Part shown: one piece after another, positions 8,169-31,468 of the stretch
Layout: every line of letters begins with the position of its first letter
Numbering within the stretch: the first letter of the stretch is position 1
Source of the DNA: Thermodesulfobacteriota bacterium
GTDB lineage: Bacteria; Desulfobacterota; WTBG01; JAGOGO01
Length of the DNA stretch: 32,000 bases
Direction: 5' to 3'
NCBI GenBank assembly: GCA_026625185.1
Contig: CP113000.1
Span: 585,622 to 617,621 of the forward strand
Program-made: the position numbers and the translations under genes
The notes under the pieces: model-generated
Databases searched by the model: none
The model's input: only the letters and a program-made list of their open reading frames with translations
What the model was told of the DNA's origin: nothing

Positions 8169-8224
8169 AGATATCTACTGGGAAATGTTGCCTGTGGTGA
8201 AATGATGTTGGTTACGAATTCAAG

Positions 8225-8252
8225 AAAAAACCCCTGGAGTACCTTTACGGGG
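8225..8252 (-). terminator. Possible intrinsic terminator after the 566-aa GT-C gene
   Basis: The minus strand reads CCCCgtaaaggtactccaGGGG followed by TTTTTT. It lies about 58 nt after the stop at 8310. The stem is short (4 GC pairs plus 2 internal pairs), so this is tentative. Confidence 0.35.
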
Positions 8253-8309
8253 TAGAAATGTCACCGCTATCTTTCTTTTTTATCGAAGTCATGACTTCAA
8301 CCCGGCATC

Positions 8310-11058: not shown

Positions 11059-11111
11059 CAATGTATTCCTCCTATTTTTAGAATCTAATTTTAAATTATA
11101 ATTGGAAGAAC

Positions 11112-12587: not shown

Positions 12588-13239
12588 ATCCGACACCTTT
12601 AACCGTATGAATTAGTTTTGGGGAGAAGTCTTTATCAATTTTAGCCCGGAGATGATTGATGTGGACATCAATAATATTGGTCATGGTGTCAAAATTATAA
12701 TTCCAGATGTGCTCGGAAAGCATGGTGCGGGTCAGAACCTGGCCGGGATTTCTCATAAAATATTCGAGTAGAGCGTATTCTTTTGGGGTAAGGTCAATAA
12801 GAGCATCCCCCCGCCTCACCTCTCGGCTGATTTGATTCAACGTTAAATCAGCATACTGCAAAAGGGGAGATACAACCTCTTTACCCCGACGAAGTATAGC
12901 CCTTATGCGCGCCAACAGCTCATGAAAAGAAAACGGCTTAACAATATAATCGTCAGCTCCTAAATTTAATCCATTCACTATGCTTCCTTCGGAGTCTTTG
13001 GCGGTAAGAAATATGACTGGGGTAGTATTTCCCCTTTCTCTTAAATGAAGAAGAATTTTATCCCCGCTCAAAACCGGGAGCATAATGTCCAGGATAATGA
13101 GGTCATAATTTTCTTGGGTTGCCAAATGAAGACCATCTTCGCCATTTTCCGCAATGTCCAAACTAAAAGAGTTTTCTTTTAACCCTTTTTCAATAAAACG
13201 GGCCACATTTTTATCGTCTTCCACCAACAAAATTCTCAT
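12565..13239 (-). CDS. OmpR/PhoB-family response regulator (receiver plus winged-helix domain)
   Basis: MRILLVEDD, ILDIMLP with the phospho-acceptor Asp, and LTAKD. The C-terminus LTPKEYALLEYFMRNPGQVLTRTMLSEHIWNYNFDTMTNIIDVHINHLRAKID..KLIHTVKGVGYVF is a canonical winged helix. Confidence 0.95.
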   Translation of the reverse strand: MRILLVEDDKNVARFIEKGLKENSFSLDIAENGEDGLHLATQENYDLIILDIMLPVLSGDKILLHLRERGNTTPVIFLTAKDSEGSIVNGLNLGADDYIVKPFSFHELLARIRAILRRGKEVVSPLLQYADLTLNQISREVRRGDALIDLTPKEYALLEYFMRNPGQVLTRTMLSEHIWNYNFDTMTNIIDVHINHLRAKIDKDFSPKLIHTVKGVGYVFKGKN

Positions 13240-15342: not shown

Positions 15343-15355
15343 CGGTGTCCGGTTA

Positions 15356-16576
15356 TTACTTTGCCGGTCGTTGGGTGAACAGCTTCGCTGCCAATGATTT
15401 ATCATAGGCAGCCTGGTCAATTTCCAACATCCAGGTGCGCAACGGGCCGGAGGTTATCCGGGTAAAAGCGGCCATGCCCAGTCGAATCATCAGAAAAAGA
15501 CTGGTTACCGCGGTCCAGATGGCTACTGCCAATAAACCCAGATCACTGTGCCCGGTAAGGGCGCCGGTCGTCAGCAGGATGAGGTTGGGGTTGCGTCTCG
15601 CGGTAATGAGCCGGAAATACGAGTCCACCGGACGCCAGATGAATATTACAAAAGTTCCCAAAAAATTCTTGAAAACAAGTTCTACCAGACGCCCCACGAT
15701 ATAGCCTGCGATGATCACCCATAATACCGTATCCAAAGATATATCCGGCGATCCCACCTGGGAAGCGCCCAGACCAAGTCCCCAGGCTACGTACCAAACT
15801 GGCGGGTGCAGGAGGTCAATCAGATGATCAAAAAGATGCCCGAACCGAGTAGACGTTATGGTTACGCGGGCCAATTTTCCGTCAACCGTGTCCAGGAAGG
15901 TCATCACCCACCCGGCCAGCAATCCCCAACCGAACTGGCCGCGGGCAAACAACACTGCAGCCAGGATGACCAGCACGAAGCCTATCAAAGTAACCTGGTT
16001 AGGGCTCATGCCGAGATTCGCGCACACTTTTGTGCACCACTGAGCCGGACGCGGCCATACCCATTTGGTCACCAGGTCGGTCACCCCCTTGTAGGACCCG
16101 GCAAAAAGGCGTTGTTCCAGCTCACCACGGTTTATTTCGGTAATGGGTAGAACAAAAGGCGGATCTGACTTTTTGAGGCGCCTATGATAGGACGAAGAGA
16201 GGGTCTCCGGGATTTCGGTTCTAATGCCGGGCAAGGATGTCTCAGGGGATCGGCTGCTCAGGAGTTCCCGCGCTTGCAATGCGCAGCTCGATCGCACCTG
16301 GGCAGCGACCGGTACTCGTGCCCCGTCCGGACCGGCCTGGAGCACCACGTCGGTCATCTCAATCAGACTGTTGATCACCCGATCGTCATAAAGGTAATCA
16401 CCGCGGATTAATAATACTGAACTTTGCGGTGGAATGGATTCAAGATTTTCTAAAAAATCGACTTCGCCCGCGTGCCTGAGCGCTCGCTCCAAGCGCTGGC
16501 GGGAGGACAATCCCCAAAGTGTGATCGGGCTATCACAAAAAATATAGGCGTAGGTCGGCATCAATGAACCTTTCAT
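15356..16576 (-). CDS. CDP-alcohol phosphatidyltransferase family protein with an extra cytoplasmic N-terminal domain of about 150 aa
   Basis: The full CDP-alcohol motif is present: DTVDGKLAR-VTITSTRF-GHLFDHLID, that is D-x2-DG-x2-AR-x8-G-x3-D-x3-D. About 6 TM segments follow. The N-terminal domain is soluble. ATG 16561 (AAAGG 7 nt upstream) is an alternative to ATG 16576. Confidence 0.9.
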   Translation of the reverse strand: MKGSLMPTYAYIFCDSPITLWGLSSRQRLERALRHAGEVDFLENLESIPPQSSVLLIRGDYLYDDRVINSLIEMTDVVLQAGPDGARVPVAAQVRSSCALQARELLSSRSPETSLPGIRTEIPETLSSSYHRRLKKSDPPFVLPITEINRGELEQRLFAGSYKGVTDLVTKWVWPRPAQWCTKVCANLGMSPNQVTLIGFVLVILAAVLFARGQFGWGLLAGWVMTFLDTVDGKLARVTITSTRFGHLFDHLIDLLHPPVWYVAWGLGLGASQVGSPDISLDTVLWVIIAGYIVGRLVELVFKNFLGTFVIFIWRPVDSYFRLITARRNPNLILLTTGALTGHSDLGLLAVAIWTAVTSLFLMIRLGMAAFTRITSGPLRTWMLEIDQAAYDKSLAAKLFTQRPAK

Positions 16577-17082: not shown

Positions 17083-18063
17083 GTGAACAGGTTTAAGGTG
17101 GAAAAAAAGCTTCCGTCTAACTACGAGGAGGTGTTTAGGCTTATTCATCTTTCCGATCCCCACTTGTTTTCAATAACCAATGTGCGGTTACGGGAGCTGC
17201 TGAATAAAAGAGTTTATGCCTATTTTTCCTGGCGCCTGCACCGGCAAGCTGAGCATTGTGGTGAAGTTCTCGCCGCTTTGCTAAAAGACATGCAATCCCT
17301 CAAACCCGATCATATCGTTCTCACCGGGGATTTGACACACATGGGCCTGCCGAGCGAGTTTCGTCAGGCGCAAGAAATGCTTCAGTCCCTGGGGCCGCCC
17401 TCAAAGGTAATGGTAATACCTGGCAATCATGACACCTATGTTGCCACAGCGTGGGAGCGCACGTTTCGCCTCTGGTCAGATTACCTGGCCTCCGATGCAG
17501 ACCATTGTTTCCCGGAAGCAGCAAAGGCACGCAATATTGTTTTTCCCACCTTACGAGTCCGCGGCCCCATTGCCCTTATTGGTGTTTCCACTGCCTGCCC
17601 CACTATACCGTTTCTCGCTACCGGCAGCATCGGCAAAGTGCAGATGAAGAAGCTTGAAAATATTCTTGACGAGACACGGCGTAGACACCTTTTGAGAGTG
17701 GTGCTGATCCACCACCCACCGGTTCCTGGGGCGGTTTCCTGGCGGAAACGACTTACGGACCAGGCAGCATTCCAAGCGCTTCTGGCGCGCCATGGCGCTG
17801 AACTCATTTTGCATGGTCATACCCATCGCACTTATTTAGGACATCTTGAGACGCCTGGGGGCAGAGTTTTTTCAATCGGTGTCCCGTCAGCGTCATCCCT
17901 CGGCCGCACAGCACATCGACGGGCTCGATACCATGTCTTTCGTCTGATACGAACTGAGAGTGGACTGGAGATGCTGCTTACAGTGAGAGTTTACTCGCCA
18001 ACAAAACAACGATTCATCGATGAAGACGAACAGCAGGTGCCGTTGCCTCAACCGACCGGCTGA
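17083..18063 (+). CDS. Calcineurin-like metallophosphoesterase (326 aa)
   Basis: The metal-binding motifs appear in order: HLSDPHL, LTGDLTHMG, IPGNHD, LIHHPP, LHGHTH. The start is GTG 17083 or GTG 17098, with no ATG nearby. Confidence 0.85.
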   Translation: MNRFKVEKKLPSNYEEVFRLIHLSDPHLFSITNVRLRELLNKRVYAYFSWRLHRQAEHCGEVLAALLKDMQSLKPDHIVLTGDLTHMGLPSEFRQAQEMLQSLGPPSKVMVIPGNHDTYVATAWERTFRLWSDYLASDADHCFPEAAKARNIVFPTLRVRGPIALIGVSTACPTIPFLATGSIGKVQMKKLENILDETRRRHLLRVVLIHHPPVPGAVSWRKRLTDQAAFQALLARHGAELILHGHTHRTYLGHLETPGGRVFSIGVPSASSLGRTAHRRARYHVFRLIRTESGLEMLLTVRVYSPTKQRFIDEDEQQVPLPQPTG

Positions 18064-18263: not shown

Positions 18264-19343
18264 TCATGCCGGGCTATGGGCGTGGGACAGGAACCCAAGA
18301 GCGAGACAGAAGATTACCGCAACCGGTGCCAGTGCGACGAGCGCCAGGTTTAAACCAAAAATCAGTCCGAGGTTCCCAAGAATCTGATTGAGAAAATACA
18401 CCCCAATACCGACGATTCCCCCGATCATTATCCTGAATCCAGCAGTATGCTTGCGGGTTGATCCAAAGACGAAGGTAAGGGAGAGCAAAACCAGGGCAGC
18501 CGTGGACAGAGGGGTGCTTACCTTTTGCCAGAATAATAACTCGTATTGATCGGAATTTTGCCCGGTCTCCCGCAGTAACTGAATATACTGGTAAAGGTCA
18601 GAGGGCGATTGAATTGCCGGCGGAACTTCCTGAATTGTCATCTGCTCTGCACTGAGTACCGATTCACGGGTGAGACTGGGGAGGCGCTTGGTGGTCACCC
18701 CCTGGGGAGTAATGACCTTCTGCTCGACATCGGTGAGCACCCATTGGTTGTTTTTGGTAACAACAGCTTTTCGAGCGTGGGTGAATACGCGGAGACGCCT
18801 CTCTTGGTCCCATTCGAAAATGTCAACGTTTTCCGGAAGTACGCCGGCGTGGATTTTGCTGACGTGGATAAAGACGGATCCGTTGCGCGCCCAAAAACCG
18901 TTGGTGGTAAACGTGATATCAGCAGCGTTGCTGAGCGCAATCAAACGCCCTGTCCGTGCCTGCTGCTCCATGGGCGGCACAATAAACTCTGCCAGGATTC
19001 CCGATGCCAGCATGGGAAGCGTGGCGGCCGCAAGGACTGCCCAGCAGATTCGACGCACCGATATGCCGCCGGCTTGCATGGCGACGAGTTCATTTTTGTC
19101 CGCCAGCAGTCCAAGGGCTATGACTCCCCCCAGGAGGCAGCTTTGCGGTATCAGGTCCAGTAGTCGGCCCGGCAGTGTGAGAAGCACATAAGATACGGCA
19201 TCCGTAAGCTGATAGTGTCCTTTTCCCACATCATCCAGTTCAAGGATAAACTCAAAAAAACTGAACAGAAATCCCAAGATGGACAGTACCAGCAGAAAAC
19301 ATCGAGTGAAACTTTTGCCGATATAGAGATCAATTATTTTCAT
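18264..19343 (-). CDS. lptG: LptG, LPS export ABC permease (YjgP/YjgQ family)
   Basis: IDLYIGKSF at the N-terminus, ELVAMQAGGIS, and NGFWARNGSVFIHVSKI parallel E. coli LptG (LDRYIGK, ELVVMQASGF, GLWAKDGNNFVYIERV). It directly follows lptF. ATG 19343 is preferred over TTG 19367. Confidence 0.85.
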   Translation of the reverse strand: MKIIDLYIGKSFTRCFLLVLSILGFLFSFFEFILELDDVGKGHYQLTDAVSYVLLTLPGRLLDLIPQSCLLGGVIALGLLADKNELVAMQAGGISVRRICWAVLAAATLPMLASGILAEFIVPPMEQQARTGRLIALSNAADITFTTNGFWARNGSVFIHVSKIHAGVLPENVDIFEWDQERRLRVFTHARKAVVTKNNQWVLTDVEQKVITPQGVTTKRLPSLTRESVLSAEQMTIQEVPPAIQSPSDLYQYIQLLRETGQNSDQYELLFWQKVSTPLSTAALVLLSLTFVFGSTRKHTAGFRIMIGGIVGIGVYFLNQILGNLGLIFGLNLALVALAPVAVIFCLALGFLSHAHSPA

Positions 19344-19406
19344 CACCAAGCACGCAATATAAGACAATAGAAAAATTTTTCATAAACGGTGGTAACAACA
19401 ATATGA

Positions 19407-20501
19407 TTACCGACATCGTGGGTGAGACCAGCACTGCTGAGACGGATTAAGCAGAAGGATGAGCAGGACCACGGCCAGCAATCCTTGTACCCACCAAATA
19501 CCCAACCATGGGGGAATCTGGCTTTGTTGCACCCCGAGTTTGGCCACGGTGACGATGCTGTAATAAAATCCGTAAATGATTATACCAATGGGAAGATTGG
19601 CATGTTTGCCCTTGCGTGTTTCTATCCGGCTCAGAGGCACACCGAGGAGCGCCAGAAGGAGCGTGGAAAGCGGAGATAACATCCGCCACTGTAGCTCAGC
19701 GATGTCTGAAGGGTTTTTAGAACGCGCTAGGTAAAAAGTTGAGGCGGCCTTTGTTTTGTATTCCAAGGGGGTAATTTCTTTGGGCCATAAAGAAACCGTG
19801 TACTGCGCCGATTCCATAACGCGCCCTTTTCCTTCTCCGGTGCGAGGCAATTCATAACGACAGGCGTTCAGAAAGAAGATGACTTGTCTGCCGGTGGCCG
19901 GGTCAAGACGCTGATAGGCCTCCTTTGCGTAGACGACTTCCAGCAGATCATTTCCCTCTTTCGGATCTTTTTCCATGAAGACCCCCTCCGCTCTCTGCCT
20001 TGTTTGGTCAATTTTCTCAATAAAGATGAACCGATCCCCTTCGCCGATTTTATAAAACCTGCCTGCTTTCAATCTGGTGACGTCAAACTCGGCCTTTGCT
20101 TTGGCTTTCAACCAGAAAAATTGTTCGTAGGCCCATGGCCGCACGGCGAGCGATAAGCTCCCCCCCAGGAGCGCTACCGGTAAGGACAAAACAAAAACGA
20201 CTGCCAGCACCCGACAAAGAGACACGCCGGAAGCAAAGAGCGCCGTCATTTCATTATCATTATAGAGTCGCCCTATACCGACTATGACCGAAAGGTAAAG
20301 GCTGGTGGGAAGAACTACCTCCAGGGCGATCAATACCTTGAGCAGAATAATGAATATGATTGTCTTTATGGACATAAGGCCGAAGGTTGCATCTGCAAGG
20401 TAGCGATTTGTGCTGTGTGCTGCGAAGATTATCACCAAAACCGCAACCATGCTTATCAGCGGCTTGATTATTTCGGCTATGAGGTAACGATTTAAGATCA
20501 A
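19407..20501 (-). CDS. lptF: LptF, LPS export ABC permease (YjgP/YjgQ family)
   Basis: ILNRYLIAEIIKP at the N-terminus, NEMTALFASGVS, a periplasmic beta-jellyroll-length insert, and 6 TM segments. The only start that preserves the conserved N-terminus is TTG 20501. Confidence 0.85.
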   Translation of the reverse strand: MILNRYLIAEIIKPLISMVAVLVIIFAAHSTNRYLADATFGLMSIKTIIFIILLKVLIALEVVLPTSLYLSVIVGIGRLYNDNEMTALFASGVSLCRVLAVVFVLSLPVALLGGSLSLAVRPWAYEQFFWLKAKAKAEFDVTRLKAGRFYKIGEGDRFIFIEKIDQTRQRAEGVFMEKDPKEGNDLLEVVYAKEAYQRLDPATGRQVIFFLNACRYELPRTGEGKGRVMESAQYTVSLWPKEITPLEYKTKAASTFYLARSKNPSDIAELQWRMLSPLSTLLLALLGVPLSRIETRKGKHANLPIGIIIYGFYYSIVTVAKLGVQQSQIPPWLGIWWVQGLLAVVLLILLLNPSQQCWSHPRCR

Positions 20502-21218: not shown

Positions 21219-22397
21219 GTGAAGCAACTTATCCAACCTCCGGCCGCACAAAACGCCCGGACCGATCATACCCTCCGGATCGCACGAGTTGAGGGACGGA
21301 GTGGTTTTCGTCAATTCATCCGCCTTCCTTGGTCTCTATATGGCGATGACCCGATGTGGGTCCCGCCGCTTCTCATTGAGCGGCGCCGGCACCTTTCCCC
21401 CCGCAATCCTTTTTTCGCGCACGCCCAATACTGTTCCTGGCTAGCGTACCGTGGATTGCGGCCCGTGGGCCGTATCAGCGCCCAAGTTGACGAACTTCAT
21501 ATTCAGCACCATCGAGACGCCACCGGTTTTTTCGGAATGATAGAGGCTGAAAACGACGCCACGACGTTCCGGGCCCTCACCGATACCGCTGAGCAGTGGC
21601 TCCGCGGCAAGGGGATGCGCCGCATTATCGGCCCACTCAATCTTTCCCTAAACCAGGAAGGTGGGTTGCTGGTAGAAGGGTTCGACACCCCCCCCTCAAT
21701 CATGATGGGCCATGCGCACCGTTATTATGGTCAACGGATCGAGGAGCAAGGCTATCGCAAGGAAAAGGAACTGCTTGCATACCTTGTCAATATTGAATGT
21801 AATTGGCCTCCCTTGGTACGAAAAATTGCAGCAAAAGCGCCCCAAGACGTGCTTCTCCGACCGTTGTGCATGTCCCGTTTCACCGAAGAATTGGAGACTC
21901 TGCAGGGTATTTTCAATGACGCATGGTCCCAAAACTGGGGTTTTATCCCGTTCACCAAGGCGGAATTCCAACATATGGGGCAGGATATTAAACACCTGGT
22001 GGATAAGGAATTCGTGCAGATCGCAGAAGTAAACGGAGACCCCGCTGGGATGATCGTGGTGCTCCCAAACATCAATGAAGTTATCCGGGACCTCAACGGG
22101 CGGCTTCTCCCCTTCGGCTGGATGAAATTGCTCTGGCGTCTCAAGGTGAGATACCCGACTTCTGGGCGGGTCCCCCTTATGGGAGTGTGCCGGCGCTATC
22201 AGGAGAGCATGCTCGGGTCTGCGCTCGCCTTCATGCTTATAGATGCGGCACGCGTCCCCGCCCTCAGGCGCGGTATGCGGGAAGTTGAGATGTCCTGGAT
22301 ACTTGAAGACAATATGAGGATACGGAACATTATCGAATCCATCGGTGGCAAAGTATACAAACGCTACCGAATATATGGAAAAGAACTTTATGAATGA
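21219..22397 (+). CDS. GNAT-fold N-acyltransferase, candidate bacterial ceramide synthase (bCerS-like), 392 aa
   Basis: F-QFIRLPWSLYGDDPMWVPPLLIERR, NPFF-HA...WLAYR...VGRISAQVD, and the C-terminus SWILEDNMRIRNIIESIGGKVYKRYRIYGKEL. I recognise this roughly 390-aa architecture as a family usually annotated as N-acetyltransferase. The ceramide synthase role is inferred from context. GTG start. Confidence 0.5.
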   Translation: MKQLIQPPAAQNARTDHTLRIARVEGRSGFRQFIRLPWSLYGDDPMWVPPLLIERRRHLSPRNPFFAHAQYCSWLAYRGLRPVGRISAQVDELHIQHHRDATGFFGMIEAENDATTFRALTDTAEQWLRGKGMRRIIGPLNLSLNQEGGLLVEGFDTPPSIMMGHAHRYYGQRIEEQGYRKEKELLAYLVNIECNWPPLVRKIAAKAPQDVLLRPLCMSRFTEELETLQGIFNDAWSQNWGFIPFTKAEFQHMGQDIKHLVDKEFVQIAEVNGDPAGMIVVLPNINEVIRDLNGRLLPFGWMKLLWRLKVRYPTSGRVPLMGVCRRYQESMLGSALAFMLIDAARVPALRRGMREVEMSWILEDNMRIRNIIESIGGKVYKRYRIYGKELYE

Positions 22398-22547: not shown

Positions 22548-23348
22548 ATGAATAGAACGAAAAAAACCTTCACCGCCGTGGTGCTGGCAGCGGACCGCGG
22601 TCCCAATGATCCCCTGGCCCGGACAGCGGGTGTTTCCTGTAAATCTTTTGTTCACTTGGGAGGAAGGCCTATGGTGCTGCGCGTGCTCGACACGCTTGCC
22701 GGGACCCGGGAAGTAGACTCCCTGGCGGTATGCGGTCCTTCCGAGGCCTTGCTTGCCCAGGAGCCTGAACTGCTCTCCAGAATTAATGCAGGTAAGATCA
22801 GATGGATTCCCCCTCAGGCAACCCCCAGTGCAAGCACGTACCACGTGTTGGAGGGGCTCCCCCCGGACGTTCCCGTGCTCGTCACCACCGCTGATCACGC
22901 GTTTTTGACCGCCGAGGTAGTCGACTTCTTTTGCGGCAAGGCCCGTGCCACCGGTTGTGACGTTGTCGCCGGTCTTGCCCCCCATGAGCAGGTCATACGC
23001 GCATTTCCCCGGACCAGAAGAACCGCTACCAGGTTGCGTGACGGTGCTTTTTGTTCATGTAACCTCTTCGCCTTTTTGACTCCACGGGCACGCAGGGCCG
23101 CAGAGTTTTGGCAAAAATGCGAACGCAACCGCAAGAAACCCTGGCGAATGATGCGGGTAATCGGTTGGCCGGTTGTGGTCCGATATTTGCTGGGAACGCT
23201 GTCCCTGGAGGAAGGCTTGAGGAGGTTGTCAGCCCGCATGAATGTCAAGGCAGGAGTGGTTATCATGCCTTTTCCCGAAGCGGCCGTCGATGTGGACACG
23301 GTCAGTGATTGGCGTTTGGCGGAAGAAGTCCTCGCTGGTCGAGGGTAA
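22548..23348 (+). CDS. MobA-like NTP-transferase-domain protein (266 aa)
   Basis: The N-terminus FTAVVLAADRGPNDPLA...CKSFVHLGGRPMVLRVLDTL and a later VLVTTADHAFL resemble the MobA/CofC/CobY-type nucleotidyltransferase fold. ATG 22548 is preferred over TTG 22446, whose extension is low-complexity. Confidence 0.55.
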   Translation: MNRTKKTFTAVVLAADRGPNDPLARTAGVSCKSFVHLGGRPMVLRVLDTLAGTREVDSLAVCGPSEALLAQEPELLSRINAGKIRWIPPQATPSASTYHVLEGLPPDVPVLVTTADHAFLTAEVVDFFCGKARATGCDVVAGLAPHEQVIRAFPRTRRTATRLRDGAFCSCNLFAFLTPRARRAAEFWQKCERNRKKPWRMMRVIGWPVVVRYLLGTLSLEEGLRRLSARMNVKAGVVIMPFPEAAVDVDTVSDWRLAEEVLAGRG

Positions 23349-23453: not shown

Positions 23454-24278
23454 TTACCTGCACTCTGCGACGGATTCTTCCGTGCACGCGCTCACCATGT
23501 GTGCCGCACTCTTCAAATCCGCAGGAAAATCGACCTCACAGCTCCGCAGACCTTCAATTGAACATGTCCAAACCTTCATGGTGGGACACAAATCTCGAAT
23601 TACGGACAAGTACCATTTCCGGGAAGACGAAGGATCGCCCATGGCTTTTTCAAGCCCTTGGCGGAAAAGAGCCGGGCCTTCCCCCCGAAAAAGGATCATC
23701 CCCACTGACTCGCCGTCCGTCTTTTCGGGATCGAGATCTTTGCCGATGTTGATGAGTCTTTGTCCTTCCAGGGTCACTTTCATGTCATCGGCGTCGTAGT
23801 GGGACTTGTACGTGATCACTACGGTCACCGGGTGTACGGCTCTACTCAGCACCCGCCGTACCACCCCGGCTTCGAACAACGTGTCCCCGTTAAGCAGGAA
23901 AAAATCTTCATTCATCTCGTCCCGAGCCATCCAGCAACTGACGAGGTTGTCCGTTTCGGCAAACTTAGGGTTTTGGATAAGAGTAATGCGACCCACGCCA
24001 TAGCGCTGGGTCAAAAGCCGCTCAACCTGATCAGCGCCATAACCGACAACTACGCTTACTCGGTCTATCCCGGTGACAAGCAGTGTATCGATCTGCCACT
24101 CAATCAATTTTTTCCCCTGAATGGGCAAGAGACATTTCGGAGTTTCAGCCGTAAGCGGCAACAATCGTTTTCCCTGGCCGGCACTTAAAATAATAGTTTT
24201 AATAAACAGCCTCCCTAAAATAATTGTTTCACTCGGAGAATGGAAAAACGCCTCGCCTTTAGGTAAAGGCTTAAGCAA
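23454..24278 (-). CDS. LicC/IPCT-like cytidylyltransferase (sugar- or alcohol-phosphate nucleotidyltransferase)
   Basis: IILSAGQGKRLLPLTAETPKCLLPIQGKKLIEWQIDTL, VVVGYGADQVERLL, N-KFAETDNLVSCW and FFLLNGDTLF are colinear with pneumococcal LicC as I recall it. The start is ambiguous: TTG 24278 has no SD, whereas ATT 24203 lies 6 nt after GGGAGG. Confidence 0.75.
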   Translation of the reverse strand: MLKPLPKGEAFFHSPSETIILGRLFIKTIILSAGQGKRLLPLTAETPKCLLPIQGKKLIEWQIDTLLVTGIDRVSVVVGYGADQVERLLTQRYGVGRITLIQNPKFAETDNLVSCWMARDEMNEDFFLLNGDTLFEAGVVRRVLSRAVHPVTVVITYKSHYDADDMKVTLEGQRLINIGKDLDPEKTDGESVGMILFRGEGPALFRQGLEKAMGDPSSSRKWYLSVIRDLCPTMKVWTCSIEGLRSCEVDFPADLKSAAHMVSACTEESVAECR

Positions 24279-24335
24279 GCCGAAACTTTGAACCCGATAC
24301 CAAAAGGCATTTATACACTAAACTAATTAAGTGAT

Positions 24336-24872
24336 ACCTAAACTGAGCGATTTTTCTTCGCTAATATACCCAAATCATGGTAGCACAGGTCAGAATATTT
24401 CACCTTTGATAACCGGCGAGATGCCTTTTCTACGATGTTTTGTTAATAAAATCGCTAAGTTAGTTGATATTTATTATTGATTATAATTTATTTATAACAT
24501 TAAATCACTCTTGTCCAAATTTTTTATTGATTATAATTTATTTATAATATAAAATAACTTTTTTCAAAATTAAGTTTTTTTAAAAAAAACAATATGTTGG
24601 ACAGAAGAATGAACATGGGGTATGGTTACCTCCTCGACCCCCTGAAATAACTCTATTGAAAGGCCTTTTGCTCTTAGGAAACGAAACCTTTGCAAAAAAT
24701 ATTTTTTGGTCACCCGGAACTAGTTTTAGGTTCTCGGAACATGTTGATTTTATTAGATGCTGAAACAAGTTCAGCATAACATAATAGTCTTAATTGACAT
24801 TTGGGCAACAAGCTCTTCTGACCTGTCCTACTGTGGTTTTGGAACCTTAAACAAGAATCGCTCAGTTTAGGT
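24336..24872. mobile_element. 537-bp noncoding element bounded by perfect 17-bp inverted repeats (MITE-like)
   Basis: ACCTAAACTGAGCGATT at 24336..24352 is the exact reverse complement of AATCGCTCAGTTTAGGT at 24856..24872. The interior is AT-rich and has no credible ORF. It contains a 2 x 50 bp tandem repeat and an 8-bp-stem hairpin, ATGCTGAA-acaag-TTCAGCAT (24757..24777). I saw no target-site duplication. Confidence 0.45.
24471..24570. repeat. Tandem direct repeat, 2 x 50 bp
   Basis: Copies 24471..24520 and 24521..24570 match at 43 of 50 positions by hand alignment. This includes a perfect 24-nt core, TTATTGATTATAATTTATTTATAA, at 24474..24497 and 24524..24547. Confidence 0.85.
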
Positions 24873-25021
24873 CTCGAATACCATCAACGTTCGAAGGTTT
24901 TCGCTACTTTTCACTGAAAATTTTTCTGGCTTTTTACAACTAATCGGGAGAAAAACCAAATTTTTTAATGACAGACTTATTTTTTGATTGAATAAGTAAA
25001 AATTTTGTGTTAAGAAAAAAA

Positions 25022-25054
25022 ATTAAATATTATTAATGTGTAATAATATTTAAT
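25022..25054. promoter_or_regulatory. Perfect 14-bp inverted repeat with a 5-nt spacer (candidate operator) upstream of the FAAL operon
   Basis: ATTAAATATTATTA-atgtg-TAATAATATTTAAT. A second perfect 12-bp inverted repeat (ATACTATAAAAT 25068..25079 and ATTTTATAGTAT 25100..25111) overlaps a consensus TATAAT at 25109..25114. Confidence 0.4.
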
Positions 25055-25275
25055 GGATATTATAAAAATACTATAAAATATTAGGTTATTTTCTATTTGA
25101 TTTTATAGTATAATTTGTTTAAAACATCACTTTCATCTTAAAAAAACCCCATTAGCATCACGTCGGAAAAATTTTTGAGAGGATATACTAAGGAATTTAT
25201 AAAGTTCCACGTATAAATTAGGAATAAAGTTTCTAAAAAAATGTAGTCATTTTGAACATCAAGGAGTCTATTCTT

Positions 25276-27039
25276 ATGGAGGCTACGCCGACCCAAAACG
25301 ATTTGCAGTTGCGACTGGCAGATTTCTCGAGCCTGGCAGAAGCAGTGGATTACGCGGCACAAGGTAAAACAGGATTCAACTTCTATCGCGGGGGGAAGAT
25401 AGTGTCTGTTCTCCCCTATGCGAAATTACGGGAAAAAGCGATAATTCTTGCGCGTCGTCTTTGCGGCTTAGGTGTGGAGCGGGGAAGTCGGGTTGGCCTG
25501 GTGGCTGATACCGAGCCGGCTTTCATGATTTTTTTCTTCGCCTGCCAGTACGCAGGACTGGTTCCGGTTCCTCTGCCGGCTTTTTTCCATATGGGTAGTC
25601 ATAAAGCCTATGTGGAACAGTTGCGGCGGCTGCTCATCAACTGCGATGCGGAAATAGCTGTTGCTCACAAAGGCTATTTCGAGTTTCTCAATAAGGCGGC
25701 AGAAGGACTGAATCTTCGTTTCGTGGGTACTCCCGAAGCCTTCGCAGAACTCCCTGAAGCGTCGACCACCCTGCGGCCTCTTGAAAGTGACGAACTGGCA
25801 TACCTGCAATACACTTCAGGAAGCACCCGCTTCCCCCGGGGGGTAATGATTACCCAGGCCACCTTAATGAGCAATCTAGCGGACATCAGCATTCACGGGG
25901 TTAAGGTACGGCCGGAAGATCGCTGCGTGTCATGGCTTCCTTTTTATCACGATATGGGGCTCGTGGGGCTGGTGCTGGTTCCGGTAGCATCTCAGAGATC
26001 CGTTGATTATTCCAGCACTTTTGATTTCGCTATGCGCCCCAGACAATGGATAGCGTTGATGAGCCAGAACAAAGCGACTATTTCTTTCAGCCCCCCGTTT
26101 GGTTACGAGCTGTGCGCCCGCCGAATAAGGCCAGAGGATATTGCCGGGTTTGATCTCAGCAACTGGCGTGTTGCCGGCGTTGGGGCGGAAATGATTCGTC
26201 CCGGACCGCTGGAGGATTTTGCCGGGGTCTTCTCTTCGTGCGGGTTTAAAGAGGAGGCATTTCTCGCTTGTTACGGGATGGCCGAATGCTCTCTTGCCGT
26301 GAGCTTTGCGCCGCTTGACCGTGCGCTGGAGTTGGACTACATTGATGGGAACAGCCTTGCCCGAGACAAAAAAGCCGCTCCCATTGATCCGGCACACAAG
26401 AAGGATAGTGCCCGGGTGAAGCAGTTTGTTAAGTGCGGCATACCGTTGCCGCAGTATGAAATTTCCGTGCGGGATTCACAAGGACGGGATTTGCCGGATA
26501 GACATTGCGGAACCCTCTTTGTGCGGGGACCCAGTGTTATGAGCGGCTATTTCGCCGATCCCGAAAATACCAATGCGGTGTTGTCTTCTGAGGGTTGGCT
26601 TAACACCGGAGATTTGGCATACCGGATCTCCGGCGAAATCGTGATTACGGGCCGAAAAAAGGACCTCATTATCATCAACGGCCGCAATATTTGGCCGCAG
26701 GATCTGGAATACCTGGCGCAGGCGCAGCCGGAAGTAAGATCGGGGGATGCGGCTGCCTTCTCGGTGCCGGGTCCGGATGGGGGAGAAAAGGCGGTAATCA
26801 TGATCGAGTGCCGCGAGTCAGACGCTGCAAAACGTACTGCGCTCATAGAACGTTTGCGGACCATATTTCTTGAAGAGCTCGGGCTGGACTGTTTGATCTG
26901 TCTTGTCCCTCGTAATACTTTACCACGCACGACATCAGGTAAACTGTCCCGGTCTCAAGCCCGTCAAAGATTCCTCGAACAATTCGGCAAAGAGCTGCTG
27001 ACGCAATCGAACATGGACATATATAAACAGGCGAGTTAA
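25276..27039 (+). CDS. Fatty acyl-AMP ligase (FAAL-type adenylating enzyme), likely acyl-ACP synthetase for sphingolipid synthesis
   Basis: AYLQYTSGSTRFPRGVMIT is an FAAL-style AMP-binding motif. Also present: WLPFYHDMGL, GYGMAE, GWLNTGDLAY, GRKKDLIIINGRNIWPQD and a C-terminal TSGK. AAGGAG sits 9 nt upstream of ATG 25276; the track start 25252 is TTG. Confidence 0.85.
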   Translation: MEATPTQNDLQLRLADFSSLAEAVDYAAQGKTGFNFYRGGKIVSVLPYAKLREKAIILARRLCGLGVERGSRVGLVADTEPAFMIFFFACQYAGLVPVPLPAFFHMGSHKAYVEQLRRLLINCDAEIAVAHKGYFEFLNKAAEGLNLRFVGTPEAFAELPEASTTLRPLESDELAYLQYTSGSTRFPRGVMITQATLMSNLADISIHGVKVRPEDRCVSWLPFYHDMGLVGLVLVPVASQRSVDYSSTFDFAMRPRQWIALMSQNKATISFSPPFGYELCARRIRPEDIAGFDLSNWRVAGVGAEMIRPGPLEDFAGVFSSCGFKEEAFLACYGMAECSLAVSFAPLDRALELDYIDGNSLARDKKAAPIDPAHKKDSARVKQFVKCGIPLPQYEISVRDSQGRDLPDRHCGTLFVRGPSVMSGYFADPENTNAVLSSEGWLNTGDLAYRISGEIVITGRKKDLIIINGRNIWPQDLEYLAQAQPEVRSGDAAAFSVPGPDGGEKAVIMIECRESDAAKRTALIERLRTIFLEELGLDCLICLVPRNTLPRTTSGKLSRSQARQRFLEQFGKELLTQSNMDIYKQAS

Positions 27040-27227
27040 ACAGGCTCTCCTGTGAAAGCCCCGCAATTACCCCGAAGGAGCCGCAAAAAGCACACCTTGA
27101 CGAAAGGGAAAGACGAATATACAACTGCGTTCGGATTAACCGTTCGTCCGTACGGGTTAGTCCGGGATTTGGGCTTTGGGGTGATCGTTTATGAGATGTT
27201 CAGATCGGTCATAACCGGACAGGCAAA

Positions 27228-28169
27228 ATGTCTCGCATCGTAGCCCTCACGGGAGCAACAGGGTTTATTGGCGCCGCCATAGCGCGTCGGCTGAAAGCCG
27301 CAGACTGGCAGATAAGAGCGCTGGTCCGTCCCACGTCAAGACGAGACCATCTCGACGGTCTTGGCCTCCATTGGATAGAAGGTGCTCTTAGTGACCCGGA
27401 AAGCTTGCGCCGTCTGGTGCTGGGGGCAGATGCGGTGGTGCATTGTGCCGGAGCGGTGCGGGGCGCGGATTCTGAGGACTTTATACGCGTAAACAAACAT
27501 GGGGTGTCGCGGCTGGTGCAAGCAGCCACCGAGCAGCTGCCGAAGCCTCGTTTTTTGCTCATCTCTTCACTTGCCGCCCGTGAGCCGCACCTTTCGCCCT
27601 ATGCAGCAAGCAAGCGACAGGGAGAAGAGGAACTTGCCGCCGGAGCGGGTGAAATGCCGTGGGCGGCGCTGCGGCCATCAGTTGTCTATGGGCCGGGAGA
27701 CAAAGAGTTGCTTTCTCTTTTTCGATTGATGTACCGGGGAGTCGGCTTGGTGCTGGGGCCGACCGATGCCCGGTTTTCGATGCTGTATGTAGACGATCTT
27801 GCCGAGGCAGTGGCGCAATGGCTGAAATGCGGGAACACGCGGCAACGAGTGTTTGAAGTGCATGACGGGCAGCCCGACGGCTATAGCTGGGACGATCTCA
27901 TTAAGACCATGGCCCGGGTGAGGGAAGGGCGTGTGCGTCCGGTGAGGATTTCAGCCCCATTTTTGTCGATTTTGGCCTCGATCAATTTCGTGGCGGCACA
28001 AGCAGCCGGATACGCTCCGATGCTTACGCCGGGCAAGGTGCGCGAGTTACGGCACTCAAACTGGGTAGGTGATAATACCTTGTTCACTCGTGAGACCGGG
28101 TGGATTCCCCTCGTTCGTCTGGAAGCGGGGTTGCGGCGCATACTAAAACCGGACAGCAGATCCCATTAG
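27228..28169 (+). CDS. Extended SDR, NAD(P)-dependent epimerase/reductase family; candidate ceramide/3-ketosphinganine reductase (CerR-like)
   Basis: Rossmann motif LTGATGFIGAAI and catalytic SPYAASK (Y-x3-K). It is positioned between the FAAL and the ACP-SPT pair, as described for the Caulobacter ceramide genes. Confidence 0.7.
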   Translation: MSRIVALTGATGFIGAAIARRLKAADWQIRALVRPTSRRDHLDGLGLHWIEGALSDPESLRRLVLGADAVVHCAGAVRGADSEDFIRVNKHGVSRLVQAATEQLPKPRFLLISSLAAREPHLSPYAASKRQGEEELAAGAGEMPWAALRPSVVYGPGDKELLSLFRLMYRGVGLVLGPTDARFSMLYVDDLAEAVAQWLKCGNTRQRVFEVHDGQPDGYSWDDLIKTMARVREGRVRPVRISAPFLSILASINFVAAQAAGYAPMLTPGKVRELRHSNWVGDNTLFTRETGWIPLVRLEAGLRRILKPDSRSH

Positions 28170-28211
28170 TCCCTTTGCCGGCAGAAATGACGGTAGAATG
28201 AGGTAAGATAT

Positions 28212-28463
28212 ATGCAGGATTATCGAGAATTGGTGGTGAAGATTTGTGATATAATACGGCCCTTCAACAAGGATGGCATTGACCTGAATGAAGAGACTGA
28301 TCTGGCCGGAGATCTCGGGCTTGATTCCCTGAAAGTAATGGAGCTACTCGTCACGGTTGAAGACAGCCTCGATATTTCTATTCCCCTCAACGTTCTGCCT
28401 CGCGTGCGCACCATAAAGGATTTTGCGGAACAACTGCAACTATTACTCTCAGAAAGGTCATAG
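28212..28463 (+). CDS. Acyl carrier protein (83 aa)
   Basis: DLGLDSLKVMEL carries the phosphopantetheine-attachment serine, and the size is typical. GAGGT sits about 7 nt upstream of the ATG. Confidence 0.9.
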   Translation: MQDYRELVVKICDIIRPFNKDGIDLNEETDLAGDLGLDSLKVMELLVTVEDSLDISIPLNVLPRVRTIKDFAEQLQLLLSERS

Positions 28464-29662
28464 TGGCTATCTTTGACAAATTACATCCAATTAGCTCGGC
28501 ACTCCAAGACCTACAAAATTGTGGGGTGGACTCTGTCAACGTTGTCATAGAACGTTTTACTGCTCCTTTTGAAGCGGTGATAAACGGCCGCCGCACAGTT
28601 CTTGCCGGCACGAACAACTATTTGGGCCTTACCTTTGATCAGGAATGTATCCGGGCGGCATGTGAGGCTCTTCAGCAGGAAGGCACCGGCACCACCGGGT
28701 CACGAATGGCCAATGGGAATTACGCTGCCCATATCGCTCTGGAACGCGAATTGGCGGAATTTTTCGGCCGTAAAGGAGCCATTGTATTTTCAACCGGATA
28801 TGTGGCCATCCTGGGGATGATAACGGCTTTGGCAGGACCCGGGGATATTATTCTTATAGATTCTGACTGTCATGCGAGCATCTATGATGGGTGCCGTTTG
28901 GCCGGAGCCCAATTCATGATTTTTAAACACAACAACATCGGTGATCTTGAGAAGCGTTTGCGACGGCTGGGCAAGCAGACAGAAAACACCCTGATCGTGG
29001 TGGAAGGCATATACAGCATGCTGGGCGATCGTGCGATCCTGGCCGATATCGCTGCGGTAAAGAAGAACTACGGCGCCTGCATTTTGGTGGATGAAGCACA
29101 TTCCCTGGGGGTTCTCGGCAAACAGGGCCGTGGTCTCGCGGAGGAAGCCGGCGTTGAGGATGACGTTGATTTCATCGTCGGAACCTTCAGCAAGAGTTTA
29201 GGCACCATCGGAGGCTATTGTGTCAGTAATCATTCCCAGCTGGAACTGCTCCGTTTCGCGAGCCGACCATACATATTTACCGCATCTCCTTCTCCCTCAA
29301 TCATCGCGTCGACCCGCGAAGCTCTGAAAATTATACGCGCACGTCCTGAGTTGCGCAGCCGGCTTTGGGAAAACGCCCGGACGTTATATCAGCGCCTGAA
29401 GGACATGGATTTTGTTCTTGGTCCGGCGCCAAGCCCCATTATTCCCGTGCGTCTGAAAGACATAGTAAAGGCCGTGGCATTCTGGAACAGGCTTTTGGAG
29501 CATGGGGTATATGTAAACATGGTATTGCCACCCGCCACGACCGACGGAAATCCTTTGTTGCGTTGCAGCGTGAGCGCCGGTCACACTCCTGAACAGGTGG
29601 AACAAATCTGTGAAGCATTTGCTTCTCTCCGGGATGTTTCTGGGCCTCACCTGATGAGCTGA
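28463..29662 (+). CDS. spt: Serine palmitoyltransferase (alpha-oxoamine synthase family, PLP-dependent)
   Basis: GTNNYLGLTFD, GTGTTGSRMANG, AIVFSTGYVA, DSDCHASIYDGC, VVEGIYSMLGD, LVDEAHSLG and DFIVGTFSKSLGTIGGY are colinear with Sphingomonas SPT as I recall it, and closer to it than to BioF or KBL. The GTG start overlaps the ACP stop by 1 nt (taGTG). Confidence 0.85.
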   Translation: MAIFDKLHPISSALQDLQNCGVDSVNVVIERFTAPFEAVINGRRTVLAGTNNYLGLTFDQECIRAACEALQQEGTGTTGSRMANGNYAAHIALERELAEFFGRKGAIVFSTGYVAILGMITALAGPGDIILIDSDCHASIYDGCRLAGAQFMIFKHNNIGDLEKRLRRLGKQTENTLIVVEGIYSMLGDRAILADIAAVKKNYGACILVDEAHSLGVLGKQGRGLAEEAGVEDDVDFIVGTFSKSLGTIGGYCVSNHSQLELLRFASRPYIFTASPSPSIIASTREALKIIRARPELRSRLWENARTLYQRLKDMDFVLGPAPSPIIPVRLKDIVKAVAFWNRLLEHGVYVNMVLPPATTDGNPLLRCSVSAGHTPEQVEQICEAFASLRDVSGPHLMS

Positions 29663-29725: not shown

Positions 29726-31468
29726 ATGCGCCTACTGATAACCTTCGTCCGAAAGTACCCCCGCCATAGCGTGATTACGCTGTTTGCTTTGCTGCTGGCC
29801 GGTGCGGCGGAAGGTTTCGGCCTTACCGGAATTCTTACGTTGATTAGCCGTATTGGCGGCAATGGGATTTTGAAGGGCTCGCTATCGAAGGGAGGTTCTT
29901 TTCCACTGGCGCATTATTTGACAAATGCTCTTGCCGCGTTAGGCCTGAGCCCTACGATCGGCATGCTGCTGGCGGTGTTGGTCGCCGGTTTTGCGGTGAA
30001 AAGCGTATTCATGCTGTTGGCCAACAAGCGGGTCGGCTATACGGTTGCCCATGTCGCCACCGACCTGCGTCTTGCGTTGCTTCGCGCGCTCCTTACCACC
30101 CGCTGGGAATACTATCTTGGCCAACCGGTAGGCGCTCTTGCCAATTCATTCGCTACCGAAGCTTCGCGCGCGTCTCATGGGTATGAGTCGGGCGCTAAAA
30201 TGGCGGCGCTTTGCATACAAGCCATAATCTATCTGATAATCGGCCTTTGCCTCTCCTGGAAAGCGATGCTCGCCTCCATGGCCGCCGGGGCGATTATTCT
30301 TTTTGGATTAAGCCATTTCGTGCGAATGTCTCGGCGCGCCGGCCGCCGTCAAACATCACTGCTTCAGTCCTCGCTCGCACGTCTGACCGACAGCCTCCAA
30401 TCAATAAAACCGCTCAAGGCCATGGCGCGTGAGGAGCTGGCCGATGCTGTGCTGGTTACCGAAACCAAGCTCCTGAACAAGGCTATGAAAAAAGATGTGT
30501 TCAGCAAGGAGGCCCTGAAATCTTTTCAGGAGCCGATGGTTACCGGTTTACTGGGATTTGGAATTTTTGTGGCGCTTGAATTTTTGGCCTTACCGCTGGC
30601 TTCCATAATGGGTTTGGTATTTGTAATCGCCAACATGGTGACCAAGCTGAACAAGGTGCAGCAGGAGTATCAGAAAATGGTCACTTTTGAAAGCGCCTAT
30701 TGGTCATTGCAGGAAAAGATCAAGAATTGCGAGCATGAGCAGGAAGAGGTTTTAGGAACTGCCAAAGCATCGCTTGAGCGAAGCGTTTGCATGGATCACG
30801 TCAGTTTCAAATATGGGAAGCATTGGGTATTGCAGGAAGCGTCCCTGGAATTGCCTGCCGGGTTTTTTACCGCTATTACCGGGTCATCAGGAACCGGAAA
30901 AACCACGGTGGCTGACCTTCTGATCGGGCTGCTTCGGCCTCAGAAGGGGCAGATATTGATTGATGGTCAGCCCCTTTCCACGATAGACATTAAAAGCTGG
31001 CGGCGGATGATCGGTTATGTACCGCAGGAGACCCTGCTTTTGCACGATACCGTGATGAAAAACGTGACGCTCGGCGCTTCTGACTTAAGCGAAAAAGACG
31101 TTGAAAACGCCCTGATTGCGGCGGGCATTTGGGATTTCGTGGCAACCATGCCGCAAGGGATGCACACCACTGTTGGCGAGCGCGGAGGCAAACTCTCAGG
31201 CGGTCAGCGGCAGCGGATCGCCATCGCCCGGGCGCTTGTCCATAAGCCGTCGTTGCTGATTCTGGATGAAGCGACCAGCGGCCTGGATCCCGAAACCGAA
31301 AAGCGCATCTGCGACACCTTGCGAGGACTCCGGGGAAAACTTACGATTCTCGCTATTTCTCATCAACCTGCCCTGATAAATGCCGCTGACCGGGCTTACC
31401 ACATCAAGGATGAAAGGGCGGTTTTAACCGTAAACCCAACCGACATCGGGGCTGATTCGAAAGCATAG
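29726..31468 (+). CDS. MsbA-like ABC exporter, fused TMD-NBD half-transporter
   Basis: N-terminal 6-TM ABC_membrane region. Walker A GSSGTGKTT, signature LSGGQRQR, Walker B LLILDEATSGLD, and H-loop ILAISH. ATG 29726 (GAGGT 10 nt upstream) is preferred over TTG 29669. Confidence 0.9.
   Translation: MRLLITFVRKYPRHSVITLFALLLAGAAEGFGLTGILTLISRIGGNGILKGSLSKGGSFPLAHYLTNALAALGLSPTIGMLLAVLVAGFAVKSVFMLLANKRVGYTVAHVATDLRLALLRALLTTRWEYYLGQPVGALANSFATEASRASHGYESGAKMAALCIQAIIYLIIGLCLSWKAMLASMAAGAIILFGLSHFVRMSRRAGRRQTSLLQSSLARLTDSLQSIKPLKAMAREELADAVLVTETKLLNKAMKKDVFSKEALKSFQEPMVTGLLGFGIFVALEFLALPLASIMGLVFVIANMVTKLNKVQQEYQKMVTFESAYWSLQEKIKNCEHEQEEVLGTAKASLERSVCMDHVSFKYGKHWVLQEASLELPAGFFTAITGSSGTGKTTVADLLIGLLRPQKGQILIDGQPLSTIDIKSWRRMIGYVPQETLLLHDTVMKNVTLGASDLSEKDVENALIAAGIWDFVATMPQGMHTTVGERGGKLSGGQRQRIAIARALVHKPSLLILDEATSGLDPETEKRICDTLRGLRGKLTILAISHQPALINAADRAYHIKDERAVLTVNPTDIGADSKA

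Follow-up and report, generated by a model that had tools for sequence, protein, structure and literature searches.

An aasR-cerR-acpR-spt gene module predicted to support ceramide synthesis from acyl carrier protein-bound substrates in an uncultured Thermodesulfobacteriota bacterium

Results

Organization of the four-gene module

The window analyzed here is a 32,000-nucleotide stretch of contig CP113000.1 (assembly GCA_026625185.1, positions 585,622 to 617,621) assigned to an uncultured Thermodesulfobacteriota bacterium. Between positions 25276 and 29662 of this window lie four genes on the same strand that are predicted to encode, in order, a fatty acyl-AMP ligase (FAAL, aasR type), an extended short-chain dehydrogenase/reductase (SDR, cerR type), a small acyl carrier protein (ACP, acpR type), and a serine palmitoyltransferase (SPT) of the alpha-oxoamine synthase group. 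A preliminary description made from the DNA letters had read these genes as a compact operon for long-chain-base synthesis, and the four coding sequences that it reported, together with the LQYTSGST motif of the ligase, the Y-x3-K motif of the reductase, and the DSL motif of the carrier protein, were all recovered. Coordinates of these and all other features are collected in Table 1.

The four genes are separated by gaps that shrink along the module, from 188 nt between FAAL and SDR to 42 nt between SDR and ACP and to an overlap of 1 nt between ACP and SPT. This last overlap, also part of the preliminary description, places the single G at 28463 both in the TCA TAG that ends the ACP frame and in the GTG that begins the SPT frame. 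The FAAL start codon, an ATG at 25276, has the Shine-Dalgarno sequence AAGGAG 9 nt upstream. An ABC exporter had been proposed to continue the unit, and such a gene does follow on the same strand and ends at 31468; gene callers pick its ATG at 29726, 63 nt beyond spt, and a TTG at 29669, only 6 nt beyond spt, is an alternative start. A scan for terminators returned four terminator-like sites, fewer than the 10.2 that chance would predict. None of the four was intergenic, and no convincing terminator was found between the genes of the operon.

The 188-nt spacer between FAAL and SDR (27040-27227) has an ordinary GC content of 0.51, is retained with insertions and deletions in close relatives (159-188 nt), and holds the sequence TTGACG-17 nt-TACAAC, a possible internal promoter. 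A small open reading frame (ORF) of 63 amino acids at 27052-27243 was considered and rejected as non-coding, because relatives carry 19- and 29-nt indels there and the frame is not conserved.

Assignment of the synthase, ligase, reductase, and carrier protein

The synthase was classified by the curated cut-offs of NCBIfam and by its scores against PDB sequences. It passes the SPT equivalog model NF047599 (NCBI label 'SerpalmtaseBetaP') with 610.5 bits (cut-off 500); it stays below the curated cut-offs for BioF (332.7 bits, cut-off 426), KBL (318, cut-off 460), ALAS (245, cut-off 338), and CqsA (211, cut-off 428), as well as below that of the CFB SPT model (361, cut-off 640). Its top PDB matches are likewise SPTs, namely those of Sphingomonas wittichii (2x8u, 426 bits) and Sphingomonas paucimobilis (2jg2, 404 bits), followed at a distance by Sphingobacterium SPT (283 bits), KBL (221 bits), the cysteate acyltransferase 28eh (204 bits), and BioF (at most 182 bits). 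The likeness to Sphingomonas SPT noted in the preliminary description thus holds, with 2x8u as the top structural match in a near full-length alignment. Residues H137, D210, H213, K244 (the lysine that binds pyridoxal 5'-phosphate, PLP), and R367 are invariant in 18 homologues, and the catalytic histidine, aspartate, histidine, and arginine positions together with the PLP lysine align with those of 2x8u, 2jg2, and E. coli Spt. Sequence comparison therefore supports an assignment as SPT and not as BioF, KBL, ALAS, or CqsA.

This classification bears directly on the alternative that the module makes a non-sphingolipid amino-ketone through BioF-, KBL-, or CqsA-like chemistry with an acyl-ACP, for instance pimeloyl-ACP for biotin, or in the making of an alpha-hydroxyketone signal. 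The three enzyme families share the SPT fold, BioF also takes acyl-ACP, and many close homologues of the synthase are automatically named 8-amino-7-oxononanoate synthase in JGI and NCBI entries. By score, those same homologues are nevertheless SPTs, and they are encoded within ceramide clusters, so that the name looks like a systematic mis-annotation. The preliminary description had itself named grouping with BioF or KBL as an outcome that would speak against it, and the synthase falls short of both models. Given also that cerS, cerR, and a second LptF/LptG pair keep their synteny with the synthase gene in different phyla and that the cluster is homologous to an experimentally defined one in E. 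coli (see below), we consider amino-ketone synthesis of this kind extremely unlikely.

The remaining three proteins could be assigned with varying precision. The ligase scores 778 bits against the fatty acyl-AMP ligase model NF006624 (cut-off 600). The SDR matches the Pfam families Epimerase and NAD_binding_10 and has no NCBIfam equivalog; its PDB matches include NDUFA9 subunits of complex I along with other NAD-dependent epimerase/dehydratase-type proteins, in agreement with the published description of CerR as NDUFA9-like (PMC11087976). The ACP reaches at most 39 bits against NCBIfam ACP models whose cut-offs range from 65 to 146, below every housekeeping ACP cut-off, and it keeps the serine motif (DSL/ESI) in an alignment with E. 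coli AcpR. By sequence, it is thus predicted to be a specialized carrier of the AcpR type rather than a housekeeping AcpP.

A fifth ceramide gene and comparison with studied clusters

The preliminary description equated the four genes with the set required for ceramide synthesis in Caulobacter. All four are present; they amount, however, to four of five, and the fifth, of the cerS/yghO type, is encoded separately in the window at 21219-22397. This 392-amino acid ORF has no match in Pfam or NCBIfam, and BLASTP aligns it with E. coli YghO at 46% identity over 373 amino acids (E = 6e-122). In Caulobacter, YghO has the N-acyltransferase CC_1154 (cerS) as its homologue (PMC9386255).

A DNA search for distant matches hit an annotated spt gene in 4080 complete E. 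coli genomes, and the locus of NZ_CP039403 was used for comparison. There, yghO on the minus strand is followed on the plus strand by genes for a FAAL, an NAD-dependent epimerase (epi), an ACP, and spt, and then by lptG and lptF. In BLASTP comparisons with these E. coli proteins, which extend over the full lengths, the window FAAL is 45% identical over 576 amino acids, the SDR 46% over 306, the ACP 42% over 72, and the SPT 51% over 390. The corresponding cluster of E. coli B/BL21(DE3) (yghO, ECD_02850; aasR, 02851; epi, 02852; acpR, 02853; spt, 02854), which E. coli K-12 lacks, resembles the window in its upstream yghO-type gene, its FAAL-SDR-ACP-spt order, its 1-nt overlap of ACP and spt, and its nearby second lptG/lptF pair. 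The two loci differ in several respects. E. coli yghO is divergent and 370 nt away, whereas the window cerS has the same direction as the module and stands 2.9 kb upstream, with two nucleotidyltransferase (NTase) genes in between; the E. coli FAAL and SDR genes overlap by 4 nt rather than standing 188 nt apart; and the E. coli spt gene is not followed by an ABC exporter. Past lptG/lptF, the E. coli locus continues with a YtfJ-family gene, hypotheticals, and a 'lipopolysaccharide biosynthesis protein', none of which has a counterpart in the window, and the window's head-group genes are in turn unmatched in E. coli at this locus.

The same core order recurs in other bacteria. The Caulobacter crescentus region CC_1152-CC_1168, compared by domain type and synteny, holds the same five ceramide genes (aasR, CC_1165; cerR, CC_1164; acpR, CC_1163; spt, CC_1162; cerS, CC_1154) and a ceramide kinase (CC_1160), and the aasR-cerR-acpR-spt order of the window matches the order of its locus tags. 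Nitrosomonas eutropha has an identical aasR-epi-acpR-spt order in Neut_0458-0461 (PMC9386255); in that species, cerS and the remaining genes occupy three separate regions (PMC11324152), in contrast to the single 18-kb island of the window. The compactness noted for the operon in the preliminary description is nothing unusual: its gene order agrees with those of E. coli B, N. eutropha, and Caulobacter, and the window has the standard published arrangement. Sphingomonadaceae depart from this order in that aasR lies far from acpR-spt (PMC9386255); the S. wittichii SPT, which has a neighboring ACP, is the closest structural relative of the window synthase, shares its conserved active-site residues, and also prefers acyl-AcpR (PMC9386255). 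The SPT subgroup of Bacteroidetes and myxobacteria and the cysteate acyltransferase of sulfonolipid synthesis have the alpha-oxoamine synthase fold and chemistry in common with the window enzyme and match it much more weakly; SPTs of the former type are described as acyl-CoA users without an upstream acpR (PMC9386255).

Biochemical work with the Caulobacter and E. coli BL21 proteins has shown that AasR acylates only its dedicated AcpR and that Spt prefers acyl-AcpR (PMC9386255). By analogy with these proteins, the window AasR would be expected to acylate AcpR rather than CoA, and the window SPT to prefer acyl-AcpR.

Conservation of the module across genomes

A scan of one genome per species yielded the 80 closest loci, none of them from Caulobacter, in which SPT is 58-87% identical to that of the window. 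They derive from metagenome-assembled genomes (MAGs) labelled delta proteobacterium, Syntrophobacterales, Desulfobacterales, Nitrospirota, Methylomirabilota, Calditrichota, Terriglobales, and Gamma- and Betaproteobacteria, and the closest species representative, with 87% identity, is an uncultured delta proteobacterium. An ACP gene adjoins spt in 79 of the 80 loci, and the complete FAAL-SDR-ACP-SPT series is colinear in 44 of the 61 with sufficient flanking sequence. The ABC exporter immediately follows spt in 25 of 65 loci and stands elsewhere in the cluster in others. Linkage to spt was also seen, at distances of up to 10 kb, for the YghO-type gene (31/80 loci), the MobA/CofC-like NTase (35/80), and LptF/LptG (32-36/80), and further for the Tam41-like protein (16/80), the metallophosphoesterase (16/80), and the DAGK_cat kinase (14/80).

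The SPT subgroup concerned has been defined as 'rhodobacterial' (PMC9386255), and metagenomics has reported that Spt-like genes occur together with bCerS and CerR in 40 phyla, Desulfobacterota included (PMC11334938). In light of the latter report, the taxonomic extension provided by the window is modest.

Head-group and transport genes of the wider island

Genes for a lipid kinase, a CDP-DAG-synthase-like protein, a CDP-alcohol transferase, a phosphoesterase, two NTases, and a second LptF/LptG pair all lie less than 15 kb from spt. At the level of domains, they provide counterparts for Caulobacter CC_1161, CC_1160, CC_1159, CC_1158, CC_1156/CC_1155, CC_1153, and CC_1152 (PMC11324152), of which CC_1153 has been described as CofC-like and CC_1161 as CDP-DAG-synthase-like (PMC11324152); no candidate for Caulobacter LptC2 (CC_1168) was seen in the window. 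The window LptG and LptF are 34% and 32% identical, respectively, to the lptG/lptF pair beside E. coli spt.

The presence of a kinase and of phospho-head-group enzymes also informs a second alternative, namely that the synthase condenses an amino acid other than serine, with alanine or glycine yielding 1-deoxy or 1-desoxymethyl bases and cysteate yielding capnine-type sulfonolipids. The counterpart of Arg378 of S. paucimobilis SPT is a leucine in the window synthase. A reading of this leucine as a sign of altered specificity was rejected because the functional E. coli Spt carries an identical leucine, within LPPA. Passage of the SPT equivalog cut-off and the low score against the cysteate acyltransferase relative to SPT (204 versus 426 bits) also count against this alternative. 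Moreover, a DAGK-type kinase and phospho-head-group enzymes imply a C1 hydroxyl, which of these amino acids only serine would supply, and so lend indirect support to serine over alanine as the substrate. Set against these points are the correlation of Black Sea Desulfobacterota with 1-deoxy products and the limits of reading specificity from sequence, which are taken up in the Discussion; on balance, we regard use of another amino acid as distinctly unlikely.

Several neighboring genes were noted in addition. The NTP_transferase gene is called from a TTG at 24278 (274 amino acids), and its relatives start at an ATG behind GGGAGG (249-251 amino acids) that aligns with an ATT at 24203-24201 in the window. 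The true start is thus probably ATT 24203, the alternative being a 25-residue extension. A complete arn-type operon for lipid A aminoarabinose (598-10010, minus strand) adjoins the sphingolipid island; across the 80 related loci, no linkage of arn genes to spt was seen. Between the arn and head-group genes, the minus-strand regions 11163-13239 and 10318-11061 hold the genes of a PmrAB/PhoPQ-like pair, an OmpR-type response regulator and a HAMP histidine kinase, with a gene for a PEMT/ICMT-type membrane methyltransferase beside them. At the other end, the window closes at 32000 within or just before an alpha/beta hydrolase gene, the first gene after the exporter. In the same strain, locus L084 (10220-15003) continues past the ABC exporter on the same strand with genes for the alpha/beta hydrolase, a PLD-like protein, a GFO/IDH/MocA oxidoreductase, and a NeuB-plus-cupin protein, which could serve further modification of the lipid or its head group.

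The spacer upstream of the module

The operon had been described as preceded by roughly 1 kb of AT-rich noncoding DNA with several symmetric elements, and a gap of this description is present, 997 nt long and with a GC content of 0.289 compared with 0.505 for coding sequence. It holds direct and inverted repeats. Seven other gaps in the window have GC contents of 0.22-0.41. Two other assemblies of this strain carry the spacer either unchanged or with 98.9% identity. Its length is 938-1235 nt in four species-level relatives, and more distant relatives have a gap of about 230 nt before the same operon. Within the spacer, a 63-nt inverted repeat has its arms (I1 and I3) about 420 nt apart.

Both arms trace to mobile DNA. 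The exact 16-mer CCTAAACTGAGCGATT occurs twice in the window in opposite orientation, at 24337 and at 24856-24871 (minus strand), and both copies are terminal repeats of an IS1380-type miniature inverted-repeat transposable element (MITE), one complete and the other an older remnant. The complete 128-nt MITE aligns in reverse orientation with a 131-nt element at the related locus L001 (106 identical positions in 138 alignment columns, about 77%), and the related locus L090 preserves an empty site, a single uninterrupted TGATA without the MITE. A conserved terminal 19-mer, taken from the right arm, was found exactly in 54 metagenome contigs, only 3 of which are sphingolipid loci, and in the remaining contigs it forms the end of unrelated elements. 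It has an inverted partner 72 to 1771 nt away in 27 contigs. The terminal repeat bounds elements of 1.72-1.77 kb, several of which carry an ORF of 470-500 amino acids, and the single such ORF tested matched the transposase family DDE_Tnp_1_4 of the IS1380 type (E = 1.6e-35). As the two 63-nt arms are MITE copies, the main symmetry of the spacer consists of transposon ends and not of operators. More widely, elements ending in CCTAAACTGAGCGATT are widespread in contigs of sediment and freshwater metagenomes and form an IS1380-type family with autonomous copies of 1.72-1.77 kb and miniature derivatives of 72-280 nt, in which lengths of about 72, 131, 165, and 215 nt recur (loci L091-L144).

These observations were weighed against the proposal that the spacer is a dedicated and elaborate regulatory region with multiple operators, an invertible switch, a leader RNA, or a small RNA. 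Consistent with such a region are the retention of a long spacer in the four species-level relatives, the alignability across relatives of two segments (one a block of some 165 nt at about 24850-25015, the other the last 150 nt or so with the palindrome at 25192-25208), and the 420 nt or so flanked by the inverted repeat. An invertible promoter switch, to which the inverted repeat and the opposite orientation of the L001 segment had pointed, was rejected because three assemblies of the strain have one orientation and because the arms are two separate MITE copies, one of which has its own second terminal repeat, a TGATA duplication, and the empty site of L090. A conserved leader RNA, riboswitch, or small RNA within the 165-nt block was rejected as well. 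Rfam searches of the spacer with gathering and E-value thresholds returned nothing relevant; RNAalifold on six sequences detected no covariation (covariation term of -0.41 kcal/mol, pairs essentially invariant); and the 19-mer within the block is a transposon end that occurs in unrelated contexts. The block is 86-91% identical between species, compared with 76-91% at four-fold sites of the flanking genes, which is within or only slightly above the four-fold-site range and hence indicates no above-neutral conservation. With its symmetry due to MITE copies, with AT-rich gaps general in the window, and with shorter gaps in distant relatives, the view of this spacer as unusual and as a site of elaborate control is unsupported, and we judge a dedicated regulatory region of this kind to be unlikely. 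The spacer is best explained as an ordinary divergent promoter region that has been enlarged by insertions of miniature transposons and by local duplications. Within the promoter-proximal segment, the palindrome at 25192-25208 may possibly act as an operator.

A further palindromic element in the spacer, REP-like in character, recurs in the intergenic DNA of relatives in both orientations, with one to three copies per spacer and the consensus AGAT-NCNGAA-ACAAG-TTCNGN-ATGA. Sites were recorded at positions 2993, 3046, and 3556 of locus L087, at 2759, 2830, and 3358 of L090, and at 1984 of L001. Its stem shows compensatory changes, for example ATCCCGAA...TTCGGGAT, and CTGAA/TTCAG versus CCGAA/TTCGG.

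Table 1. Coordinates of predicted genes and sequence elements in the 32,000-nt window.
Feature	Position	Strand	Remarks
ArnE/F candidate, EamA-type	598-1116	-	
ArnD	986-1909	-	392 bits, cut-off 382
ArnA	1910-3943	-	1087 bits, cut-off 777
ArnC	4065-5024	-	just below cut-off
ArnB	5021-6172	-	just below cut-off
Two ArnT-like PMT_2 paralogues	6211-8058, 8310-10010	-	
Tam41-like (CDP-DAG-synthase-like) protein, CC_1161 domain counterpart	13358-14317	-	Pfam Tam41_Mmp37, 23.7 bits, cut-off 24
DAGK_cat lipid kinase, candidate ceramide kinase (CC_1160/CpgB counterpart)	14314-15420	-	Pfam; weak YegS PDB matches
CDP-alcohol phosphatidyltransferase, CC_1159 counterpart	15356-16576	-	Pfam CDP-OH_P_transf; weak PIP-synthase-type NCBIfam matches
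Metallophosphoesterase, CC_1158 counterpart	17083-18063	+	Pfam Metallophos
LptG-/LptF-type permeases	18264-19367, 19407-20501	-	Pfam LptF_LptG; counterparts of cluster-linked second LptF/LptG copies
bCerS/YghO-type ceramide synthase (predicted N-acyltransferase)	21219-22397	+	392 aa; 46% to E. coli YghO
MobA/CofC-like NTase, CC_1153 domain counterpart	22548-23348	+	Pfam NTP_transf_3
NTP_transferase, CC_1152 domain counterpart	23454-24278	-	Pfam NTP_transferase
Divergent promoter region, NTase gene (-)/aasR operon (+)	24279-25275		997 nt, GC 0.289
Complete 128-nt MITE, IS1380-type terminal repeats	24337-24464	-	TGATA flanks at 24332-24336 and 24465-24469
Tandem duplication of 50-nt AT-rich unit (D1)	24469-24568	+	units 86% identical
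REP-like palindromic element	24757-24777	+	ATGCTGAA-ACAAG-TTCAGCAT
Right-end remnant of older copy of the same MITE	24816-24871	+	present in all close relatives; orthologous to element in L001, L087, and L090
Palindrome (I8)	25192-25208		GGAATTTATAAAGTTCC; promoter-proximal segment; conserved as GGAATTCATGAAGTTCC in relatives
aasR-type FAAL	25276-27039	+	587 aa; AMP-binding; LQYTSGST
cerR/epi-type NDUFA9-like extended SDR	27228-28169	+	313 aa; GATGFIG, Y-AAS-K; predicted ceramide-pathway 3-keto reductase
acpR-type dedicated ACP	28212-28463	+	83 aa; Pfam PP-binding, DSL serine
SPT, alpha-oxoamine synthase	28463-29662	+	399 aa; class-II aminotransferase fold; GTG start; GTFSKS
MsbA/HepA-like ABC half-transporter	29726-31468	+	Pfam ABC_membrane and ABC_tran; candidate (oxo)ceramide flippase, putative role

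Discussion

The gene content, order, and neighborhood described here lead us to read positions 25276-29662 as an aasR-cerR-acpR-spt module for ceramide synthesis with an acyl-ACP-fed SPT, an interpretation to which we assign a probability of roughly 85%. Family membership, conserved catalytic residues, and the gene order with its conservation across phyla are direct results of the comparisons. What we infer from them is which substrates are used, whether acylation or reduction comes first, the nature of the head group, and the roles in transport. In the pathway so envisaged, the FAAL-type ligase would adenylate a free fatty acid and charge the dedicated small ACP with it at the phosphopantetheine arm, and the PLP-dependent SPT, translationally coupled to the ACP by the 1-nt overlap, would condense the resulting acyl-ACP with L-serine to give 3-oxosphinganine. 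The YghO/bCerS-type acyltransferase encoded 2.9 kb upstream would add the N-acyl chain, and the NDUFA9-like SDR would reduce the 3-keto group to yield dihydroceramide. In one published model, the reductase acts on the N-acylated 3-oxo-ceramide rather than on the free long-chain base, and the order of N-acylation and keto reduction is still disputed in the literature (PMC11087976). The kinase, the CDP-alcohol transferase, the Tam41-like protein, the phosphoesterase, and the two NTases would then probably build an anionic phospho head group resembling the ceramide phosphoglycerate of Caulobacter. The MsbA-like ABC exporter, encoded in the same direction, and the LptF/LptG pair would probably flip the lipid and carry it to the outer membrane. 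Both this head group and the ABC and LptF/LptG export route are suggested by synteny.

A number of points weigh against this interpretation or parts of it. Ceramide production is here predicted from the genes of a metagenome-assembled genome; amino-acid specificity is not readable from sequence; and the Desulfobacterota of the Black Sea correlate with 1-deoxy-ceramides and sulfono-1-deoxy-ceramides (PMC11334938). The proposed orthology of the head-group genes to those of Caulobacter derives from domain type and synteny, and the match of the Tam41-like protein is marginal, just under the Pfam cut-off. Finally, the 188-nt gap between FAAL and SDR could house an internal promoter, so that the genes need not form a single transcription unit.

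A more ambitious picture can be drawn from the same genes. A complete 'rhodobacterial' system, comprising the acyl-ACP-fed SPT, bCerS, CerR, an anionic head group based on ceramide kinase, a second LptF/LptG pair, and an MsbA-like exporter, may be active in an uncultured and probably anaerobic lineage resembling the deltaproteobacteria. The exporter might then act as the flippase that has been missing, bringing 3-oxo-ceramide to a CerR in the periplasm, and the island, the arn genes, and the PmrAB-like genes might together form one unit for remodelling the charge of the outer membrane. As a joint proposal this is tentative, and we think it less probable than not. The window differs from Caulobacter both in its host, an uncultured deltaproteobacterium-like MAG, and in that its island adjoins an arn (4-amino-4-deoxy-L-arabinose, Ara4N) operon and a two-component system.

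The module identified here is a known bacterial ceramide module in a new host, and nothing about it overturns current knowledge. It does show a whole island of the Caulobacter type at a single locus in a host other than the alpha-, beta-, and gamma-proteobacteria in which such islands were defined, and it agrees with the recent metagenomic view that the capacity for sphingolipid synthesis is widespread. There is also value for annotation: the 392-amino acid ORF can be called as a YghO/bCerS-type ceramide synthase, and homologues automatically named 8-amino-7-oxononanoate synthase are better named SPT. The MsbA-like exporter that is recurrently linked to spt can reasonably be put forward as a candidate ceramide flippase, a component for which current models have a need and no protein.

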